DNA from: Minisyncoccota bacterium
Lineage (GTDB): Bacteria; Patescibacteriota; Minisyncoccia; JBAYJV01
NCBI GenBank assembly: GCA_041664925.1
Contig: JBAYJV010000002.1
Location: forward strand, 200,302-264,301
Length of the DNA stretch: 64,000 nt
Direction of reading: 5' to 3'
Position 1 is the first letter of the stretch; every line of letters starts with the position of its first letter. Positions 11,825 to 59,032 of the stretch are shown here, piece by piece. Under the pieces are notes generated by a model, which worked only from the letters and a program-made list of their open reading frames with translations, was not told the DNA's origin and made no database searches. A program made the translations under genes and the position numbers.

Positions 11825-11942
11825 TCCGCCTCCTTCCTTTGAGTGTTTGAATGTGAGAAACCTAACTTCCTCTTCACTATCTATTATACCACAAACTTAT
11901 TAAAAAATCAATACTTTATACCTTGGCACAAGTTATTTTGTA

Positions 11943-11976
11943 TAAAAAAAGAAGGTTCGCTTGCTGGCGAACCTTC
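11943..11976 (-). terminator. Intrinsic terminator (minus strand)
   Basis: 10-bp perfect stem GAAGGTTCGC/GCGAACCTTC, 6-nt loop, T7 run on the minus strand. Confidence 0.6.
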
Positions 11977-11994
11977 ATCTCATACGTTCCTGGG

Positions 11995-12240
11995 TCAAGT
12001 AGATATTGTCACTTCGACCAGCTCCACCGCTCCCTCAGGAAGGAGATCTTCGAGTCGCTTGACTTGAGCGCACTCGTAGGGCGTTCCTTCGCAGGGATCT
12101 TCGGAACTGAATCTCGCTCGACCTTCGCTTCTTTCGACAGGTTTCGGGCACCCCTGTCTGTGAGCACTCAGATGAGAGAAAGAAACTCCTCGATGCTTGC
12201 TTCGCGACACGTCTTTTCCTCCTTTGCGTTTTGGGTCCAT
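11995..12240 (-). CDS. Hypothetical basic small protein (high-GC); could alternatively be part of a non-coding transcript
   Basis: 81-aa ORF inside a minus-strand unit of about 400 nt, bounded by promoter rc(TTGACT-N16-TACAAT) at 12350-12377 and terminator 11943-11976. No SD. Confidence 0.3.
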   Translation of the reverse strand: MDPKRKGGKDVSRSKHRGVSFSHLSAHRQGCPKPVERSEGRARFSSEDPCEGTPYECAQVKRLEDLLPEGAVELVEVTIST

Positions 12241-12349
12241 GATTGGACCGCTAATGCTGGAGAGGAAAGGAGGTTTTTAAAGTACAATTTTAACTTTGTC
12301 CTCTCCAACATTAGAGATCTAATATTTGTTTAGAAAGTGCTTTTCACAT

Positions 12350-12377
12350 TACAATTCCATTGTAGCATATATTATAT
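12350..12377 (-). promoter_or_regulatory. Minus-strand promoter of the high-GC transcript
   Basis: rc TTGACT-N16-TACAAT. Confidence 0.45.
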
Positions 12378-12413
12378 CAAAAGTCAAGAAAAACAGTAGT
12401 TATTTGAAAAATA
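12376..12413 (-). terminator. Intrinsic terminator after ftsQ-like gene (bidirectional hairpin)
   Basis: AACAGTAGTTAT-TTGAAAA-ATAACTACTGTT flanked by T-runs on both strands. Confidence 0.55.
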
Positions 12414-17334: not shown

Positions 17335-17552
17335 AGATTAAGCGCTGGTTTGTAAAAAAAGTTATTGAGAATAAGCTTGTGTCTACGCTGTGTCTTATTC
17401 TCGCCATTATTCTGCTTTCTGTTGATATCTATTATACTTTGTTACTTTTTAGGCTGACATGGTTTATACTTTTAATGGCGTTCATCTCTGGTTTCCTTTT
17501 GTGGTTCGATGCAAAATGTGAATCGCATCGCGCAAAGCTAAAATTAGATTAA
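17331..17552 (+). CDS. Small two-TM protein, paralog 2
   Basis: 73 aa, two TM helices, C-terminus CESHRAKLKLD. The 3' 45 nt are identical to the next gene. Confidence 0.55.
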   Translation: MKIKRWFVKKVIENKLVSTLCLILAIILLSVDIYYTLLLFRLTWFILLMAFISGFLLWFDAKCESHRAKLKLD

Positions 17553-17563
17553 AAGGAGAAAAT

Positions 17564-17791
17564 ATGAATAAGAAAATCTGTCGACAGTTTGTGAAAAGAA
17601 TTGTTGAAAGCGAATTTATGTTTATTACATGTATAGGAATCTCCTTTAGCTTGCTGGCTGTTGATGTATTCTACGCCTTATTGGTCCGTAAAATAACACT
17701 CCTTGCGGCGATTATAATGTTAATTGGTTGTCTTCTTATAGTTTTTGGCGGAACGTGTGAATCGCATCGCGCAAAGCTAAAATTAGATTAA
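17564..17791 (+). CDS. Small two-TM protein, paralog 3
   Basis: 75 aa, SD AAGGAG, identical C-terminus CESHRAKLKLD. Confidence 0.55.
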   Translation: MNKKICRQFVKRIVESEFMFITCIGISFSLLAVDVFYALLVRKITLLAAIIMLIGCLLIVFGGTCESHRAKLKLD

Positions 17792-17802
17792 AAGGAGGAA
17801 AA

Positions 17803-18027
17803 ATGGATGAGGAAGTAATGGGTGTTATCAGTTCAGCAATCGCTGGATTTGGAGAACAAGCCAACATTGCCTCAAATGTAGCACGCGACAAGATAGCAGT
17901 AAAGATTATCGAGGAACTAGAAGATCATGGTTTCTTAATTGTTCCCGCTGCTTCATCTGGTTCTTTCCTGCGCAAAAGAGAAAAACCACCCGATTCTTTC
18001 GTTCGAGACCCTTCGGATATAGGATAG
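17803..18027 (+). CDS. Hypothetical small soluble protein
   Basis: SD AAGGAGG; 74 aa; terminator at 18033-18063. Confidence 0.45.
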   Translation: MDEEVMGVISSAIAGFGEQANIASNVARDKIAVKIIEELEDHGFLIVPAASSGSFLRKREKPPDSFVRDPSDIG

Positions 18028-18106: not shown

Positions 18107-18152
18107 TCCGCCGAAGCCCTGTCTGCGGCAGGCAGGTTACGCGTAGGCGGAT
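18107..18152. repeat. REP-like palindromic element (CCTGYCTGCGGCAGGCAGG core), copy a
   Basis: ATCCGCCGAAGCCCTGTCTGCGGCAGGCAGGTTACGCGTAGGCGGAT, about 90% identical to the copy at 21218-21264 including the upstream GAAATGAAATTAAGA. Confidence 0.55.
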
Positions 18153-18176: not shown

Positions 18177-19799
18177 TTAAACTTTTAACTTTAAATTTTT
18201 AGTCATATATGTTCCTTCCAGTTTATATCCCAACTTTTTATAATATTCTCTCACTCCAATTCCCGAAATTACTGCAATTTTTTTAGCACCAAATTCTTCT
18301 TTTGAAATCCTTTCCGCTTCAATCATAAGTTTCTTGCCAAGTCCTTTGTGCTGAGAGGCTTGTTTTGTTTTATTATTAAGGGCAACAACATTGCCATGGG
18401 TATGAAGCTCTCTGATAATTGTGGCACCGGTTAATTCTTCTATAAAATGTTTTTTGGATTGTAAGAATTGAGAAGGAATCCGTAGGCGAAGTAGGGCATA
18501 GAGGTGTTTTCTTTTTTTATCTTCAAAACTTAAGAAGATCTCTTTACCGCTAGAAGCATCATATTCTCGTCTAACCAATTCAATATTTTTATCATAAATT
18601 TCTTCACGGATTTCACGGCAACGAATACATTGGCAAGAAATGGATTGTCTTTTCATTTCCCTGGCAATATCTTGCCTCAAGTTTGAAACCTCAGATCCAG
18701 CGACAATGTCCTGAAGCGGAATATCGCGAATCACTCTGGTAATCCGAACGTAAGGAGGAATAATTTTTTTAATCCTGATAATTAAATCGATTAATTTTTT
18801 GCTAGTATATGGTTTATATTTACCAGCTTTCCATAATTTATATAAAGGCGCAGTTTTTAAAACCGATGTCGGATAGATTTTAAGCCAATCTGGTTGAAAT
18901 CTTTCATTAAAAAATAATATTTTAAACATCTGTTCATCTTTTTTCGTGCTTGATCCCGGCAAATCTAGCATTATATGATAGTTAACTTTAAATCCTGAAT
19001 CTTTTAAAAGCTTAGTCGCATCAATAATTTCCTCGATGCCATGTCCTCGTTTATTATATTTCAAAACATCATCGTAAACTGACTCAACTCCCAGTTCAAC
19101 TCTCGTTACGCCTAAACGACGCAATCTCATAATCTCTTTTTCATTTATATAGTCTGGCCTGGTCTCAATCGTTAAACCGACAATTCTGTGCTTTGCTGTT
19201 TCATTAATCTTCTGAACTGTTTTTAAATTTTGAATTTTTAACTTTAATTTTTCATTTTTCACTTTAAACTTTTCATTTGTTCCGTTCGCTCCCTCAAAGC
19301 ACCTTTTAATGAAATAGTTTTGGTAATTTTTTGTATAATACGACCATGTTCCGCCTAAAATAATTAATTCAATTTTATCGGCATTATGGCCTTGTGCCTC
19401 CAAGCTTTCAATGCGACGCTTTACCTGTAAATACGGATCAAATTTAAGCGTAAGTGCTCTGGCTGCAGCTGGTTCATTTTTTAAATAACTTTTCGGCATG
19501 CCAATTTCTTTCGGACAAAAAATGCATTTTCCCGGACATTCGTAGGGCTTGGTCAAAACTGTCACCGAAACAATGCCTGATAAACTTCTGATGGGGGCAG
19601 CGCGTAAAAGTTTCTCAAAATATTTATCAAGCGAATCTGTCCTTTTTTTATAATTTTCTCGGTAATATTTAAGAATGCTTGAATTTTTGGGAAAATCGTT
19701 ATTTTTAAATTTTAAAACCGCCTCGCGCTTTAATTCAAAAACCTGCCTAGTTGTCGTAGGTTTTAATTTTATGATTTGTTTGGTAAGATAAGAAAGCAC
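18177..19799 (-). CDS. Elp3-like radical SAM / GNAT acetyltransferase (putative tRNA modification enzyme)
   Basis: Radical-SAM Cys motif YECPGKCIFCP. C-terminal GNAT acetyl-CoA motif QHKGLGKKLM. Length of 540 aa typical of Elp3. Confidence 0.65.
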   Translation of the reverse strand: MLSYLTKQIIKLKPTTTRQVFELKREAVLKFKNNDFPKNSSILKYYRENYKKRTDSLDKYFEKLLRAAPIRSLSGIVSVTVLTKPYECPGKCIFCPKEIGMPKSYLKNEPAAARALTLKFDPYLQVKRRIESLEAQGHNADKIELIILGGTWSYYTKNYQNYFIKRCFEGANGTNEKFKVKNEKLKLKIQNLKTVQKINETAKHRIVGLTIETRPDYINEKEIMRLRRLGVTRVELGVESVYDDVLKYNKRGHGIEEIIDATKLLKDSGFKVNYHIMLDLPGSSTKKDEQMFKILFFNERFQPDWLKIYPTSVLKTAPLYKLWKAGKYKPYTSKKLIDLIIRIKKIIPPYVRITRVIRDIPLQDIVAGSEVSNLRQDIAREMKRQSISCQCIRCREIREEIYDKNIELVRREYDASSGKEIFLSFEDKKRKHLYALLRLRIPSQFLQSKKHFIEELTGATIIRELHTHGNVVALNNKTKQASQHKGLGKKLMIEAERISKEEFGAKKIAVISGIGVREYYKKLGYKLEGTYMTKNLKLKV

Positions 19800-19803
19800 T
19801 ATA

Positions 19804-19929
19804 ATAAATCCGAAGCACGAAATTAGAAATACGAAACAAATTCAAATGTTTAAAATCCTAAATTAAAAATTGTTTTAAATTTTTAAAATTAGAATTTAGA
19901 TATTGTTTCGAATTTCGATATTCGAATTT
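19804..19929. mobile_element. MITE-like element, family 1 copy A
   Basis: Terminal inverted repeats ATAAATCCGAAGCACGAAATTAGAAATACGAAACAA / TTGTTTCGAATTTCGATATTCGAATTT with an AT-rich core. Confidence 0.5.
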
Positions 19930-19937
19930 TTCAAGAA

Positions 19938-20609
19938 ATGAATATAGAAACTGCAAAAAATATTTTAAACGATAACAAAAATACTTGGAACAATATTGCC
20001 GAGAAATTTGAATTGACCCGCCATCGTGTTTGGGATTTGGAACCTTTGGCAGATTATGCAAAATCCGGTATGAAAACTTTGGACTTAGGTTGCGGCAATG
20101 GCCGGCTTTATGAAATCCTTAAAAATAAAGAAATTGAATATACTGGTGTTGATATTTCAGAAAATCTAATTAATATTGCTAGGGCAAAATATCCAAAAAT
20201 TGAATTTTTAGTTGGTGATGGAATAGAATTGCCGTTCAGAGATTATTCATTTGATATTGTTTATTCAGTCGCTGTTTTTCATCATCTTCCGTCCAAAACA
20301 CTGAGAGTTCAATTTTTAAAAGAGGTAAAACGAGTTTTAAAAAAAGACGGTAAAATAATTTTGATTGTCTGGAATCTCTGGCAAAGAAAATATTTTAAAT
20401 TACTTGTCAAATCTAGTTTATTAAAAGTTTTACACAAAAGCAAGCTTGACTGGGGCGATTTATATATCCCATGGCAAAACCAATACCAAAGATATCACCA
20501 TGCCTTCACAAAAAAAGAATTAAAAAAACTTTTTATTAAAGCAGGACTTAGCATCGAAAAATCCAAATCTCAAAAAAGAAATATATTAATTATTGGAAAA
20601 AATATATAA
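19938..20609 (+). CDS. Class I SAM-dependent methyltransferase
   Basis: Motif I LDLGCGNGRL, motif II-like VDIS, DIVYS. Confidence 0.8.
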   Translation: MNIETAKNILNDNKNTWNNIAEKFELTRHRVWDLEPLADYAKSGMKTLDLGCGNGRLYEILKNKEIEYTGVDISENLINIARAKYPKIEFLVGDGIELPFRDYSFDIVYSVAVFHHLPSKTLRVQFLKEVKRVLKKDGKIILIVWNLWQRKYFKLLVKSSLLKVLHKSKLDWGDLYIPWQNQYQRYHHAFTKKELKKLFIKAGLSIEKSKSQKRNILIIGKNI

Positions 20610-20648
20610 GCTATTGACAAAAGGTAAAAAAATAATATAATAGATACT

Positions 20649-20801
20649 AGAGACTGAGGATGGCTTGAGACGTCAAACCAACAATCCTCATTTCTATTGC
20701 ATTATCTAGTCGCGGTTCTCTTTGCGGAGAGAATCATTGGCAAAAGGACGCTTTTGTCGGATTAACAACGGCAGCGAGTGCGCTCGCTGCCTTTTCTTTT
20801 T
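20649..20801 (+). ncRNA. Candidate small structured RNA, unknown family
   Basis: Promoter TTGACA(20614)-N16-TATAAT(20636-20641), GC-rich multi-hairpin body, intrinsic terminator GGCAGCGAGTGCGCTCGCTGCC+T-run (20770-20801). No credible ORF. Confidence 0.4.
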
Positions 20802-20877
20802 CAAAAAAAACGATCTCAAAAGACTGTTAAATCATAATAGGTATTGACAAAAAATTATTATATGCTATAGTGGATAT

Positions 20878-21178
20878 TGGAGGCTGGAGGAAGGACTTAA
20901 GACGTTGAGTCAGCGGTCTTCCTCCCTGCCTTTTCAAGAAAGATGTTCTCTTGTGAGAGTACACAGCGGTTTGTTGGACTGCTAGTGTGGCTACGGGTAG
21001 TTTGTGGTATCGGCTGCACGATAATAGGCCTTGCAGTCTGGCAGTACTGCGTAGTTTAGGTGCTCTCTGTCGAGAGAACAGAGAAACTGGCACAGAGCCA
21101 GTTCGCGTGTCCTGCAGGGGGCATACCTCTGCTGATGACTGCAGGGGGGTTGACGTCGAGTCAGCCCCTCTTTTTTTA
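20878..21178 (+). ncRNA. Candidate structured RNA of about 300 nt, unknown family
   Basis: Promoter TTGACA(20844)-N16-TATAGT; about 55% GC with many hairpins; terminator 21144-21177. Overlapping ORFs on both strands look spurious. Confidence 0.4.
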
Positions 21179-21217
21179 ATTTCGTCGCTGAATATAGTGA
21201 AGCGAAACGAAATTAAA

Positions 21218-21264
21218 ACCCGCTGAAGCCCTGCCTGCGGCAGGCAGGTTACGCGTAGGCGGGT
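21218..21264. repeat. REP-like palindromic element, copy b
   Basis: ACCCGCTGAAGCCCTGCCTGCGGCAGGCAGGTTACGCGTAGGCGGGT. Confidence 0.55.
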
Positions 21265-21485
21265 ATTTTTGTTTTTTTTAAACCGTAAAGATTATTCTAA
21301 GTTTTTCCTACAAAACCTTACGAAGTCGGACTTCGTAATCATTGACAAAAATGCAGAACATAGTAGGATTATAGAGTTCTTTGATAAAATAAAAAGTAGT
21401 CCCGCACCAGAGCACAGCACGGTGCGGGATTTAAGGGTTTGCAAGACTCGTAAACTCGTCAACAACCCCTAAAGGAGGACATAAA

Positions 21486-22034
21486 ATGCTCGGACGGATT
21501 GTAAAGTTTCCCGATGACTTTGAAATCTTGCCAAAATTTAAGAACGGGAATCTTCCAAGATTAATCGCAAGTTCTCTTCCTTATTATGTTCGTTTATTGG
21601 CAAGAATTTTTCCTGAAGAATGGCGATATCAAAAAATTGAAGTTGACGGACATGTCTTCCATTTAGCTTTCGATACTAAGTGGGAAATTCATTCCGAACC
21701 AGAACATTCGCCGTCTGCTGAATCAATGGCTGAATATCATGCCAGAGTTGATGGTGTTCCTGGTTTCTTGCTAGGATCGTTAGGTTGCAACAGCCATACA
21801 TCGAATCATTGGCACAAACTTGGAGGAGAGCATTACTTTCTTATTGCTGGCAAAGGCGAAGTTTGTTGCGTAAACCGTCCTCAGAAACTTACTGTTCCTG
21901 GAAGAAGCCAGGCTTATGTCGGCACCGCAGGAGGACCTAAAGGATTTCATCCAGTTCTTACAACTGATCAGTCACTCTTGGTTGTCATTCTAATGGAGCA
22001 AGGTCTTGATCGAAGTGATCATCATTATTTATAG
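21486..22034 (+). CDS. Hypothetical protein (possible cupin-like fold)
   Basis: SD AAGGAGG; GEHYFLIAGKGEV resembles a cupin beta-strand motif. Confidence 0.4.
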   Translation: MLGRIVKFPDDFEILPKFKNGNLPRLIASSLPYYVRLLARIFPEEWRYQKIEVDGHVFHLAFDTKWEIHSEPEHSPSAESMAEYHARVDGVPGFLLGSLGCNSHTSNHWHKLGGEHYFLIAGKGEVCCVNRPQKLTVPGRSQAYVGTAGGPKGFHPVLTTDQSLLVVILMEQGLDRSDHHYL

Positions 22035-25455: not shown

Positions 25456-25806
25456 TTGCTTTTTAAAAAACCCAAAAACGACGATGCGACTGTTTGGACT
25501 ACTCATGTAATTGAAAAGATGATCTATTATGGTTTATCAGAAAATAAAGTTAGAAATGTTTTGTGGCGCCCAGCGCGGACCGAAGAGGGGATTGCTCCAG
25601 ATACAATTGCTGTCATGCAGCCATATGGCTCATCAAAAAAACCAAAAGAAATTTGGGTAATGTATCAAAACTTCACGCATCAAAACAAAAAAAAGCGCTG
25701 TATTATTAGCGCTTGGCGTTATCCAGCGGTCAGCCCCAAAGGAAAAGAAATTTATATTCCCAACGATGTTCAAGAACTTTTGGCAAAAATCAGACAAAAC
25801 TCTTGA
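25456..25806 (+). CDS. Hypothetical protein
   Basis: 116-aa ORF with no SD; the start is uncertain. Confidence 0.3.
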   Translation: MLFKKPKNDDATVWTTHVIEKMIYYGLSENKVRNVLWRPARTEEGIAPDTIAVMQPYGSSKKPKEIWVMYQNFTHQNKKKRCIISAWRYPAVSPKGKEIYIPNDVQELLAKIRQNS

Positions 25807-25836
25807 CAAATAATTAAAAAGGAGTATAATGGAATA

Positions 25837-26110
25837 AATATCTGATAATGTGATATGATAGAAGTATAGAGGGCAAAAGAGGTCTCAGTCCCGTTTTCCT
25901 TGGCAGACAATGCTTTTCGCAGTAAAAATGACGGGGTGGCAGCGGTACGTAACGCGCCTCTTGCATGGTCCAAAAGACCCGTTGTCTGTCTAGCTCTCTC
26001 AAGAAGAAAGCCACTCGTTGGGTCGTCAGCGAGCGTAGGTTAGTGGATAGGGAAAAAGTAAAGAAAGCCCGATTCCGCGAAGCCAGGTACGACAACCCTG
26101 GCTTTTTTTA
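25837..26110 (+). ncRNA. Candidate structured RNA of about 270 nt, unknown family
   Basis: Promoter TTGACA(25803)-N16-TATAAT(25825); GC-rich; terminator GCCAGG...CCTGGC+T7 (26082-26109); no ORF. Confidence 0.35.
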
Positions 26111-26557: not shown

Positions 26558-26635
26558 GAACAATTCCCCCGACAATAAAATTGTCGGGGATTTTTTCTAA
26601 TTTGACAACAATCTTAGAAGAGTTAAAATGATAGT

Positions 26636-26778
26636 GGCGAGGGGTGCGAGCCTCACGCCACGGAGCCTCAGTGTTCTGTGGCCGGCGAGAGTGGAGACTT
26701 GCCGGCCAGAATTGAATGTCCGATTAGAATCGGACTATAGAGGCGGCTAACTAAAAATTAGCCGCCGTTTTTTTTGTT
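26636..26778 (+). ncRNA. Candidate small RNA of about 140 nt
   Basis: Promoter TTGACA(26602)-N16-TAAAAT(26624); three hairpins; terminator GGCGGCTAACTAAAAATTAGCCGCC+T8. Only a 41-codon ORF with no SD. Confidence 0.35.
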
Positions 26779-45535: not shown

Positions 45536-45601
45536 TTGACTTTTTTACTAAGGTATGCTATACTGATAATAAGTACAAGTGACTGGGGTTGTCCCAGTCA
45601 C
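45536..45601 (+). promoter_or_regulatory. Consensus promoter plus 9-bp perfect inverted repeat in the 5'UTR of the high-GC orphan
   Basis: TTGACT-N17-TATACT (45536-45564), then GTGACTGGG-GTTGT-CCCAGTCAC (45579-45601). Confidence 0.55.
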
Positions 45602-45629
45602 AATAAAACCAAATAGGAGGAAAGAAACG

Positions 45630-46514
45630 ATGTGTCCGATTAATGCCGATGGAATCAAGGTCGTTGCTCCTGCTTCTCCCGTAAGGGACCCGCGAACGAA
45701 CAAGGCAGTTGCAGTTGAGGTCGTCACGAAGGGTGAGTTTGAACGCTTCAATATGCCCAACTATTTCAGGGTGGGAGAAAGCGGCTCGATCACCTTCGGG
45801 TTCGGTCACTTCAACCAGGAAGGAATCGGCCGTGATCATCAGTTCAAGATCGTGGTCGAGAAGCCTCGGGAGACCGTCGACAAACTCAATCAGATGGTAA
45901 GCGACTGGTTCCGCCTCCGAAGCCTGGCGAGAACTTCGTCAGGTGACGAGAGAGAGGAAGCACGAACAGCGTTCAATGAGCTCAAGTCACGATTCCTAGG
46001 AATCATCGGGCAGCCAGCAATGGCGAAGCTCGCAACGCCCAATCTCCTGATTCTCAGTCCTCTCGAATCAGGAACAGAGGTCTTCGCGTCGATTGTGGTC
46101 TACACGACTTTCGAAAGCGATGACAAGATCGTGGATCCGATGGACGAGGGCGTACTTCTTCATGGGAGGTTCGGAGAGAATGGTCATGTGATCGCAGTTC
46201 TGATCACAACCGACCGCACCATCCCCTTCACAACTCCCAATGGATACACGTGGAAGGTTCCTGTGGATGTCCCCAACGGAGTTCCCACGGTGGAAGCGAC
46301 CTTCCCGCCGGATGCCGGTCACGAAGCGCCCGCTACCAGCGATGGCAGCGAGAGCGCCAGCGACCACGCACGAGAGGAGGTTCCTTTCCTCGAAGAGAAA
46401 GACCGTCATCATCGTAGTGGCAGAAAGCTCGCTGCGGTCGGCGCCACTGGAAGAGGCAAGGGAACCAAGAGGGGGTTGCATCCTGCCGATGTAGGAGCAG
46501 AAGACGACGGATAG
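45630..46514 (+). CDS. High-GC orphan protein, likely horizontally acquired
   Basis: SD AGGAGG before ATG at 45630; about 55% GC; own promoter 45536-45564 and terminator 46523-46560; disordered charged C-terminal tail. Confidence 0.55.
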   Translation: MCPINADGIKVVAPASPVRDPRTNKAVAVEVVTKGEFERFNMPNYFRVGESGSITFGFGHFNQEGIGRDHQFKIVVEKPRETVDKLNQMVSDWFRLRSLARTSSGDEREEARTAFNELKSRFLGIIGQPAMAKLATPNLLILSPLESGTEVFASIVVYTTFESDDKIVDPMDEGVLLHGRFGENGHVIAVLITTDRTIPFTTPNGYTWKVPVDVPNGVPTVEATFPPDAGHEAPATSDGSESASDHAREEVPFLEEKDRHHRSGRKLAAVGATGRGKGTKRGLHPADVGAEDDG

Positions 46515-54915: not shown

Positions 54916-55707
54916 ATGGCAAAAAAGGTCGGCAGGGATCCAGGAAGAACGGTAACTCAGAAAGTAAGGTTTCGTGTGTCAATTCTTACTAGGCCGACAC
55001 AATCTGATCCAATTCCCATTGAATGGGATGGTCAAGTTATCATTAAAAAATCTTGTGGAACACATTGTATATCAATTACCCTAGAACCAAATCCTAGCGA
55101 AATTGTTATGAAACTGGTCGCTGCAAGATTAAACCTGCTTGGCCATCTTCTTACTTCTAATTTTGAAGTCAAAAAACACGAACAAGAGTCATATTACATA
55201 ACAGGCACGTTTTATTTATCTACAAGTTTTAGGTTTTTTATTGATGCTTGTTATAGAACTTTCTGTGAAGAAATTCCTCAAACAAATAAATGGCCACATC
55301 ATTGGCTTGACTGGAACCCTCGCAATCTAAGCGTCGAGGAATTGCTTAGAAATGGATTGCCCCTCGCCAAAGATATCGAAGAAACATATCGCAAAGTAAC
55401 TTATGTTCTCTGCTTAAAAAGCTACATACAGGACAGCGCTGCTCCTCATCGCACAATTTCAAGACGGTGGAATCTTAATGCTCAGAACGATCAAGAATTG
55501 CAAGATGACCTTGGAAATGCTTTTGGAGTAAGAATAAAAAGTTATTGTAAAAGCGATGGAATAGCCTATTGTGGAGTCGAAATCCTTCCGGGAGATCCAA
55601 TGAGAATTATTCCTGAATTTTCCGGTTGGGCGTTAAGCGCAGGTTGGGATTGGGATAAGCTCCTTAAGGACAAAGAATTGATCCTTTGGAGAGTTGATCA
55701 AGAATAA
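54916..55707 (+). CDS. Hypothetical protein (leader-bearing paralog 2)
   Basis: SD AAGGAG; homologous 145-nt leader; N-terminal KVRFRVSIL; terminator 55721-55753. Confidence 0.5.
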   Translation: MAKKVGRDPGRTVTQKVRFRVSILTRPTQSDPIPIEWDGQVIIKKSCGTHCISITLEPNPSEIVMKLVAARLNLLGHLLTSNFEVKKHEQESYYITGTFYLSTSFRFFIDACYRTFCEEIPQTNKWPHHWLDWNPRNLSVEELLRNGLPLAKDIEETYRKVTYVLCLKSYIQDSAAPHRTISRRWNLNAQNDQELQDDLGNAFGVRIKSYCKSDGIAYCGVEILPGDPMRIIPEFSGWALSAGWDWDKLLKDKELILWRVDQE

Positions 55708-58451: not shown

Positions 58452-58541
58452 TGCAAATTAAAAATTTAAAGTGAAAAATGAAAAATGATTGAAGCTGCAA
58501 GAGCAGCTCTTTTTAATTGACAAAGATAGCTCTATGCTGTA

Positions 58542-59032
58542 AAATGTTAGAGCTTAGAAATGAATGGTCTTCTCCGGCTTTGCTGGTGAGGAAAGTCCGA
58601 ACACCGCCAATTTTGTCTTTGAGTGATAGCGAAAAGAAACAAAATTGAGCGTCTCGCCATAGTTCCGGTTCACCGGAACGTAGGCGGACACCCGCCTTTG
58701 TCTTACAGACTTCGGCGAGGTCTCGATTCTGTATCTTCGCTGCGCTTCAGACAGAATTGGAAATGGACAGTGGCTAACGGCCACCGCCCCGGCTTGCCGG
58801 GGTAGGGAAAGTACCACAGAAACAATACATCCGCCCTCGGGTGGATAGGTGAAAAGTGAGGTTTAATAAATCTCTCGACACATAAGTGATTATGCGTTGC
58901 GGCAAACCCTGTCCGGTGCAACCCCGGTATAACCGGGGGCTTGATTCATAGTAATGTGAATCAGAGGCTCTGTCGCAAGACAGGCTCTAGATAAATGACC
59001 AATAAACAGAATTCGGCTTATCATTTTTGAGC
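58542..59032 (+). ncRNA. rnpB: RNase P RNA (bacterial, with lineage-specific insertions)
   Basis: P4 strands GAGGAAAGTCCG (58587-58598) and ACAGAATTCGGCTTA (59006-59020). P1 pairing GCTTAGAAATGA / TCATTTTTGAGC. Promoter TTGACA-N17-TAAAAT at 58507-58535. Confidence 0.8.

Follow-up and report, generated by a model that had tools for sequence, protein, structure and literature searches.

In enterobacteria, OmrA and OmrB RNAs are encoded by adjacent genes on the same strand. Each gene possesses its own promoter and terminator, and the 5′ parts of the two RNAs are common while the 3′ parts differ. In OmrA/B, a single-stranded seed makes up the common 5′ end, and different species have retained both RNAs. 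The raiA motif RNA and OLE RNA are orphan structured RNAs that are known from comparative analysis only, and they are encoded by stand-alone genes. In these RNAs, covarying helices frame invariant junction nucleotides, a GC-rich structure is found in an AT-rich genome, and no biochemical function is known. To our knowledge, hardly anything has been learned of non-coding RNAs in candidate phyla radiation bacteria, the small genomes of which are thought to hold little regulation. Here we describe two consecutive units, RNA1 and RNA2, in a 64-kb stretch of DNA (hereafter, the window). The proteins encoded by the flanking genes place the host in Candidatus Paceibacterota (candidate phyla radiation), as a metagenome-assembled genome. 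The arrangement of RNA1 and RNA2 is that of OmrA and OmrB: same-strand neighbors, each with a promoter and a terminator, a common 5′ part and differing 3′ parts. In contrast to OmrA/B, however, the common part is a hairpin, and RNA1 does not possess the RNA2 core and is found in no relative. RNA2 shares all of the above features with the raiA motif RNA and OLE RNA but differs from them in that it has no match in Rfam 15 and has a far narrower distribution (seven variants in one clade).

As summarized in Table 1, both units are preceded by near-consensus promoters and end in strong intrinsic terminators, as the first-pass annotation of this DNA had claimed. Promoter sites of at least 11/12 occur 11 times on the two strands of the window, whereas first-order Markov simulations give 2.3 ± 1.5; another of these sites lies before the gene for RNase P RNA. 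The predicted folds of both units are more stable than those of dinucleotide-shuffled sequences: the z value is −4.26 for RNA1 and −6.16 for RNA2 (folded as 20878-21180), and no shuffle was as good as the real sequence. The flanking genes have a GC content of 30-34% and the window as a whole 35.7%. The GC content of 50-55% claimed for both units is correct for RNA2 (52.8%) but too high for RNA1 (46.4%). Likewise, a REP-like element had been placed after each unit. It follows RNA2, where it forms a second terminator-like hairpin, but nothing similar was found downstream of RNA1; the sole other copy in the window is at 18108-18150.

Table 1. Positions of RNA1, RNA2, their parts and the neighboring genes. 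Positions refer to the window unless a related locus (L number) is named.
Feature	Position	Strand	Description
Elp3-like radical-SAM/GNAT gene	18177-19799	(-)	divergent, upstream of methyltransferase gene
Class I SAM methyltransferase gene	19938-20609		5′ neighbor of RNA1/RNA2; homologue named ALKBH8/Trm9-like in one source
RNA1 promoter	20614-20641	(+)	TTGACA-16-TATAAT, sigma-70, 12/12; starts 5 nt past methyltransferase stop codon
RNA1	20649-20801	(+)	~150 nt
RNA1 P1-like hairpin	20649-20695	(+)	
RNA1 local hairpins	20714-20735, 20738-20761	(+)	
RNA1 intrinsic terminator	20770-20791	(+)	followed by U run to 20801
RNA2 promoter	20844-20871	(+)	TTGACA-16-TATAGT, extended -10 (TG), sigma-70, 11/12
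RNA2	20878-21178	(+)	~300 nt; "long" form of the family
P1, 5′ hairpin	20879-20933	(+)	basal stem conserved, apical part variable; common to RNA1
P2a	20944-20951 pairs 21073-21080	(+)	8/8 paired in 7/7 sequences; nearly every pair altered in L071
P2b	20955-20962 pairs 21060-21067	(+)	GAGAG/CUCUC<->GGGGAAC/GUUCCCC between sequences
P3	20971-20982 pairs 21033-21044	(+)	outer part has a different sequence in each lineage
P4 hairpin	20985-21019	(+)	GUGUGGCU (20985-20992) pairs GGCUGCAC (21012-21019)
13-nt bulge	21020-21032	(+)	between P4 and P3 3′ strand; GAUAAUAGGCCUU in the window
Joining strand	21045-21059	(+)	conserved, contains GUAGUU; between P3 and P2b 3′ strands
Two extra hairpins	21085-21143	(+)	long form only (window, L071)
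RNA2 intrinsic terminator	about 21143-21178	(+)	11-bp GC-rich stem (within 21143-21171) and U run
REP-like palindrome with U run	21210-21270	.	61 nt; 3′ of RNA2
Cupin promoter	21342-21369	(+)	10/12; separate from RNA2 promoter
Cupin gene	21486-22034	(+)	182 aa; 3′ neighbor of RNA2
tRNA-Gln(UUG) gene	L019 2878-2949; same position in L018		in methyltransferase-RNA2 spacer, where the window has RNA1

The scan against Rfam that the first-pass annotation had proposed matched no family to the region or to RNA2 at the homologous loci. At the gathering thresholds of Rfam 15, nothing in the whole window was matched. The class A RNase P RNA of this genome is a separate gene (~58.55-59.03 kb) and scores 91.9 bits, below the gathering cutoff of 100. 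Thus, Rfam thresholds can miss RNAs here, and permissive scans are needed. When the whole window was searched at E < 0.5, RNase P RNA alone was obtained. A scan of 20400-21500 with permissive filters gave only noise (E > 0.3), with nothing relevant even at E < 10. The scan of four homologous loci (E < 1) gave one tRNA only and no match to RNA2. With ARAGORN, the window gave neither a tRNA nor a tmRNA, permuted forms included, and the homologous loci gave no tmRNA, standard or permuted. The failure to recognize tmRNA, SRP RNA or 6S RNA by eye is therefore borne out for RNA2 by these searches (Rfam at E < 10, the four loci and ARAGORN). RNase P RNA is not the identity of either unit because its gene lies elsewhere.

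The first-pass annotation had suggested that the units may be divergent versions of housekeeping RNAs, and we found no support for this. The idea that RNA2 is a highly divergent 6S-, tmRNA- or SRP-related RNA missed by the Rfam models draws on the miss of RNase P RNA at the cutoff, on the shape of the core, which is a rod with an internal bubble, and on a tmRNA-like tag. As in the mRNA-like domain of tmRNA, three of the seven RNA2 sequences (L013, L015 and L018) contain a resume-like region and a "GLAA-stop" frame (..GGC CUU GCA GCY UAA/UGA) followed by a helix-5-like hairpin. However, this frame is not conserved: it is broken by an in-frame UGA in L019, and neither a stop nor LAA is present in the window and L071. 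Unlike tmRNA, RNA2 does not possess a tRNA-like domain, a T-arm or a CCA end, and both of its ends are local hairpins. A two-piece tmRNA, with RNA1 as the acceptor piece and RNA2 as the coding piece, was also rejected, since RNA1 resembles RNA2 instead of complementing it and is absent from relatives. SRP RNA was rejected because no covariance match to helix 8/domain IV was found at E < 10 in the region, at E < 0.5 in the window or at E < 1 in the four loci. RNA2 resembles 6S RNA in its rod-like core, its internal loop and its stable-RNA-type promoter, and is probably abundant as well. In contrast to 6S RNA, it has no closing stem between its 5′ and 3′ ends, which form independent hairpins; its internal loop is strongly asymmetric, with 2 nt on one side and 13 nt on the other, it is the sequence and not the shape that is conserved, and no Rfam match was obtained. 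Moreover, the gene is absent from the locus of a close relative (L017). We consider a divergent housekeeping RNA very improbable.

Neither strand contains an open reading frame of which the start, Shine-Dalgarno sequence or length is conserved across the homologues, in agreement with the earlier statement that no frame with a Shine-Dalgarno sequence is present. Furthermore, insertions and deletions in the loops are not multiples of three. A small protein gene was thus rejected. Only the short forms have an AUG within the 3′ strand of P1, and the peptides diverge after six residues. The units have what is generally expected of stand-alone non-coding RNA genes, namely an own promoter and a Rho-independent terminator without a conserved open reading frame. 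Conservation of both sequence and structure is found for RNA2 but not for RNA1.

Through relatives of the methyltransferase with 66-83% identity, we reached contigs that share the gene order of the window. RNA2 homologues are syntenic, in the spacer between the methyltransferase and cupin genes and beside Elp3, in six other Paceibacterota sequence variants. Five of these are clear homologues (L013/L014, L015/L016, L069, L018 and L019), and L071 carries a more divergent long form. With nhmmer, E values range from 1e-54 to 1e-76 for the clear homologues and RNA2 itself and reach only ~1.6e-07 for L071. Members of the family are about 240-390 nt long. Covariance model scores are 127-160 bits, but the model that we call R1 found L071 only locally (20.9 bits) and gave no new member over 210 kb of related loci. 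Reading of the sequences revealed that every homologue possesses its own TTGACA...TAnAAT promoter and a GC-rich terminator.

RNA2 is absent from the locus in the close relative L017, where the spacer consists of repeats only. It is also absent, as judged by nhmmer and covariance model R1, from all relatives with a methyltransferase identity of 63% or less, in which the cupin gene begins ~90 nt after the methyltransferase gene. Thus, RNA2 is dispensable or mobile. An Elp3-anchored scan of GTDB genomes recovered relatives at 55% identity or less only, none of which had RNA2. A metagenome scan with the core pattern gave 40 matches, 37 of which were chance matches and three of which were contigs already known or near-identical to them; the same pattern had no match in viral sequences, and blastn against phages and plasmids gave no match. 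The species of the window was found in four further, independent samples. JGI 3300037810, ENA ERZ27249449, SRR6484324 and SRR18595301 are samples in which it occurs. The RNA1/RNA2 spacer is 100% identical in them, so strain variation is uninformative. On this comparative evidence, RNA2 is a genuine conserved RNA gene of a family new to Rfam 15, confined to a narrow clade as far as visible. We infer that RNA2 is transcribed.

Structure prediction on the individual sequences gave P1, the long closing helix and the terminator independently in all seven. RNAalifold with six sequences gave P1, P2, P3, P4, P5 and the terminator, with double changes in 11 pairs. For the named structure on alignment A4, 96.3% of cells are standard pairs, whereas the value is 35-52% when the 3′ partners are slid. 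Covariation is thin because the comparison comprises seven distinct sequences from closely related organisms: the shuffle control on A4 was only weakly exceeded, and the tool counted two-sided changes in two pairs, one in P2a (UA<->CG) and one in P4 (GC<->AU). A helix table checked by hand, which took in all seven sequences including L071, shows that P1, P2a, P2b, P4 and the terminator pair in 7/7 sequences and that the terminator stems are fully compensated. P4 is paired at 8/8 positions. Its apical loop is variable and its G.U pairs are conserved, and a further CG<->UA change is observed in L071.

Within variable flanks, RNA2 contains a near-invariant core of 45 nt. The block GUAUCGGCUGCACAAGAACAGGCCUUGCAGC is almost unchanged in six of the seven sequences, and the core has diverged in L071. 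The 13-nt bulge is near-invariant, with the family consensus RAKAAYAGGCCUU. The center of the fold is ambiguous, since three pairings are open to a GCAGYC strand, namely with the 5′ flank of P4 (as inner P3), with the 3′ strand of P4 or within a small P5 hairpin; the alternative helix between GCAGYC and the 3′ strand of P4 is kept in all species. The long form, found in the window and L071 only, differs by an extended P1 and by two additional hairpins ahead of the terminator. Because the first of these hairpins corresponds to the terminator hairpin of the short form, the 3′ end has grown by hairpin duplication. The conserved GCUGAUGAC of the long form was considered as a K-turn or C/D box and rejected, since by eye the opposite strand does not possess the required GA. 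The pattern of changes across the seven sequences shows that RNA2 is under selection, apparently for sequence in the core and for pairing in the predicted helices. Comparison with the orthologous regions thus gave, for RNA2 only, a retained core, promoter and terminator together with compensated helices.

Several features of RNA2 recall riboswitch and T-box leaders: a promoter, a structured domain with competing helices and a terminator lie upstream of same-strand genes. RNA2 might then be a riboswitch- or attenuator-like cis leader, in which the terminator gates the genes for the cupin, a kinase-domain protein and AdoHcy hydrolase, the last two being downstream of the cupin gene, and senses a SAM-cycle metabolite or a tRNA. 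The order of promoter, structured core, terminator and same-strand genes fits this idea, mutually exclusive pairings of the GGCUGC strand are both kept across species, and the neighboring genes use or recycle SAM. However, no Rfam cis-regulatory family matches, so known riboswitches were rejected, and neither a known aptamer nor a T-box sequence is present. Between RNA2 and the cupin gene are the REP-like hairpin, which is a second terminator-like structure, and a separate conserved promoter, whereas a leader would be contiguous with the open reading frame that it regulates. This promoter lies in a conserved 45-nt block (window 21340-21382; ATTGACAAAAATGYAGAACATAGTAGGATTATARGGTTCTTT) that is also present in L013, L015 and L069, and L018 likewise has an own promoter ahead of the cupin gene. 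Because the cupin gene has its own conserved promoter, RNA2 is not simply the cupin leader. In addition, the long form inserts hairpins between the core and the terminator, and the same genes are kept without RNA2 in relatives. A cis leader is therefore clearly unlikely in our judgment. Over the -10 region of the cupin promoter block, there is an inverted repeat GAAC...GTTC, which is likely to be an operator.

From the retained promoter and terminator, the selection on core and helices, the conservation of the G.U pairs and the separate cupin promoter, we infer that RNA2 is a trans-acting RNA. Our main reading, to which we give a probability of about 0.45, is that RNA2 is a structured non-coding RNA which stands alone, is strongly transcribed, ends at an intrinsic terminator and acts in trans, and that RNA1 is a truncated duplicate of it. 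RNA2 would consist of P1, a covarying rod (P2a-P2b-P3-P4) and the terminator hairpin. The rod would hold the 13-nt bulge, the G.U pairs of P4 and the GUAGUU strand in a fixed geometry, and RNA2 would act as a recognition module in trans. The invariant core would most likely bind a protein or a small ligand and, less likely, pair with another RNA; the variable helices and the end hairpins would give stability.

Pairing with another RNA would make RNA2 a base-pairing sRNA, in which the exposed bulge (AGGCCUU and its flanks) serves as a seed for mRNA translation-initiation regions in trans. The stand-alone layout of promoter and terminator is typical of trans-acting sRNAs, and a conserved single-stranded stretch lies between stable helices. 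Moreover, a duplex of −20.9 kcal/mol is predicted with the 5′ UTR of the gene at 54916, ~4 standard deviations below the mean predicted for 57 initiation regions. However, this best duplex depends on bases specific to the window, and a search of the window for sequences complementary to the bulge gave 8 matches where 4.8 are expected, which is no enrichment. Furthermore, ~45 nt are conserved, paired positions and G.U wobbles among them, and a seed would need less. We regard a seed-pairing sRNA as unlikely; for RNA2 we would rank protein or ligand recognition first, a seed-pairing sRNA second and a cis leader third.

The genes around RNA2 form a conserved cassette in Paceibacterota contigs (window 18177-22034; loci L013-L028), which comprises the Elp3-like protein, the Trm9/ALKBH8-like methyltransferase and the cupin. 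The cupin possesses HxH...E...H motifs and is 50-66% identical across the loci, and its profile matches cupin structures (Sll1358/OxdC) at E = 1.4e-5. A word-indexed protein search had returned this protein as an orphan despite its 50-66% identical homologues. The pairing of a methyltransferase with an oxygenase recalls eukaryotic ALKBH8 and, by this analogy, suggests that an Elongator-type wobble-uridine pathway may exist in these bacteria. RNA2 could be a dedicated regulatory or decoy RNA of the surrounding wobble-uridine tRNA modification cassette (Elp3-like, Trm9-like and cupin oxygenase). The RNA2 core can form a hairpin GGCCUUGCAGCC, which looks like an anticodon arm, although its U33-U34-like loop is short by one nucleotide; the corresponding arm of the tRNA-Gln(UUG) gene in the L019 spacer is GGCCUUUGGAGCC. 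In eukaryotes, Elongator substrates include tRNA-Gln(UUG). If this idea were true, the GGCCUUGCAGCC hairpin could act by titrating the modification enzymes or by reporting on them. We consider such a role hardly probable, and the position in the cassette and the anticodon-arm-like hairpin are leads only.

The promoter and the first ~35 nt of RNA1 align with those of RNA2 with a local alignment score of 40, where shuffles reach 16.5 ± 2.3, and the conserved RNA2 core is missing. The 5′ strands of P2 and P3 are a possible source of the two local hairpins of RNA1. No counterpart of RNA1 was found in any related locus examined, and it is present in the species of the window only; its place in other genomes is taken by MITE/REP-like palindromes or by the tRNA-Gln(UUG) gene (L018/L019). 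We read RNA1 as a recent, lineage-specific and truncated tandem duplicate of the RNA2 promoter and 5′ hairpin, to judge from the alignment. Thus, the proposal that the units are novel sRNAs stands for RNA2, whereas RNA1 would be no independent family. RNA1 may have no function of its own. Because its promoter starts immediately past the methyltransferase stop codon, the RNA1 terminator is the first available to the methyltransferase mRNA.

The spacer in which the units lie contains families of palindromic repeats (window 21183-21270; L013, L015, L017, L018, L069 and L071), namely ATTGATTGCGT...ACGCAATCAAT and TGTCATTCCGC...GCGGGAATGACA; a third family is CCCGC...GCGGG with an inner CCTGCC...GGCAGG. 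Close relatives differ in which of these repeats they have gained or lost, and the spacer between the methyltransferase and cupin genes is thus a hot spot for insertions. The units might thus be functionless by-products of repeat-rich and fast-evolving spacer DNA. This is most plausible for RNA1, which is confined to one species. The spacer has received RNA1 in the window, tRNA-Gln in L018/L019 and MITE/REP-like elements in L013, L015, L069, L071 and L017, and hairpins have been duplicated within RNA2. However, a by-product would not be expected to retain a near-invariant core, compensated helices and a consensus promoter across species, as RNA2 does, and the locus is 100% identical in the four independent samples of the species. 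For the units as a whole, we therefore regard this explanation as decidedly unlikely.

The RNA2 locus represents a new family of structured RNAs in a still-uncultured lineage. The ends of the RNA are defined, its fold can be tested and its core is invariant, although the practical value is modest at present. In the window, at least two further units are bounded by a promoter and a terminator; together with the sub-threshold RNase P RNA, they indicate that standard annotation may under-count RNAs in these genomes. The RNase P RNA gene and its 11/12 promoter at 58517 lie within 58517-59030 (+). The motif GAGGAAAGTCCG (~58589) lies ~125 nt upstream of the start of the model alignment (58716), and this placement suggests an insertion in the 5′ half of the RNA. 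A non-coding unit at 25803-26110 (+) begins with a 12/12 promoter (25803-25830) and ends in a terminator-like hairpin with a U run (~26083-26110); it is ~276 nt long, with a local GC content of ~0.53, a fold z value of −1.8 and no Rfam match. In the unit at 26602-26775 (+), a 140-nt run of five hairpins lies behind an 11/12 promoter (26602-26629) and ends in a terminator (26742-26766). Its fold z value is −5.9, it has no Rfam match, and one of its hairpins resembles the GAAGTCCGACTTC repeat family of the window. On the opposite strand, the unit at 11945-12390 (-) has a GC content of ~0.55, a TG-extended 10/12 promoter (12387-12359) and a strong terminator (11976-11951). Its longest open reading frame has ~82 codons at most, with no obvious Shine-Dalgarno sequence, and the plus-strand frame listed at 11923-12333 looks spurious. 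A 96-nt leader, which includes a Shine-Dalgarno sequence and a start codon, is duplicated with 76% identity at 17480-17575 and 17719-17814 (+) before two small tandem open reading frames. Finally, the GC content of 45650-46450, inside the open reading frame 45579-46514, reaches 0.65 against a window average of 0.36, and this stretch may be foreign DNA.
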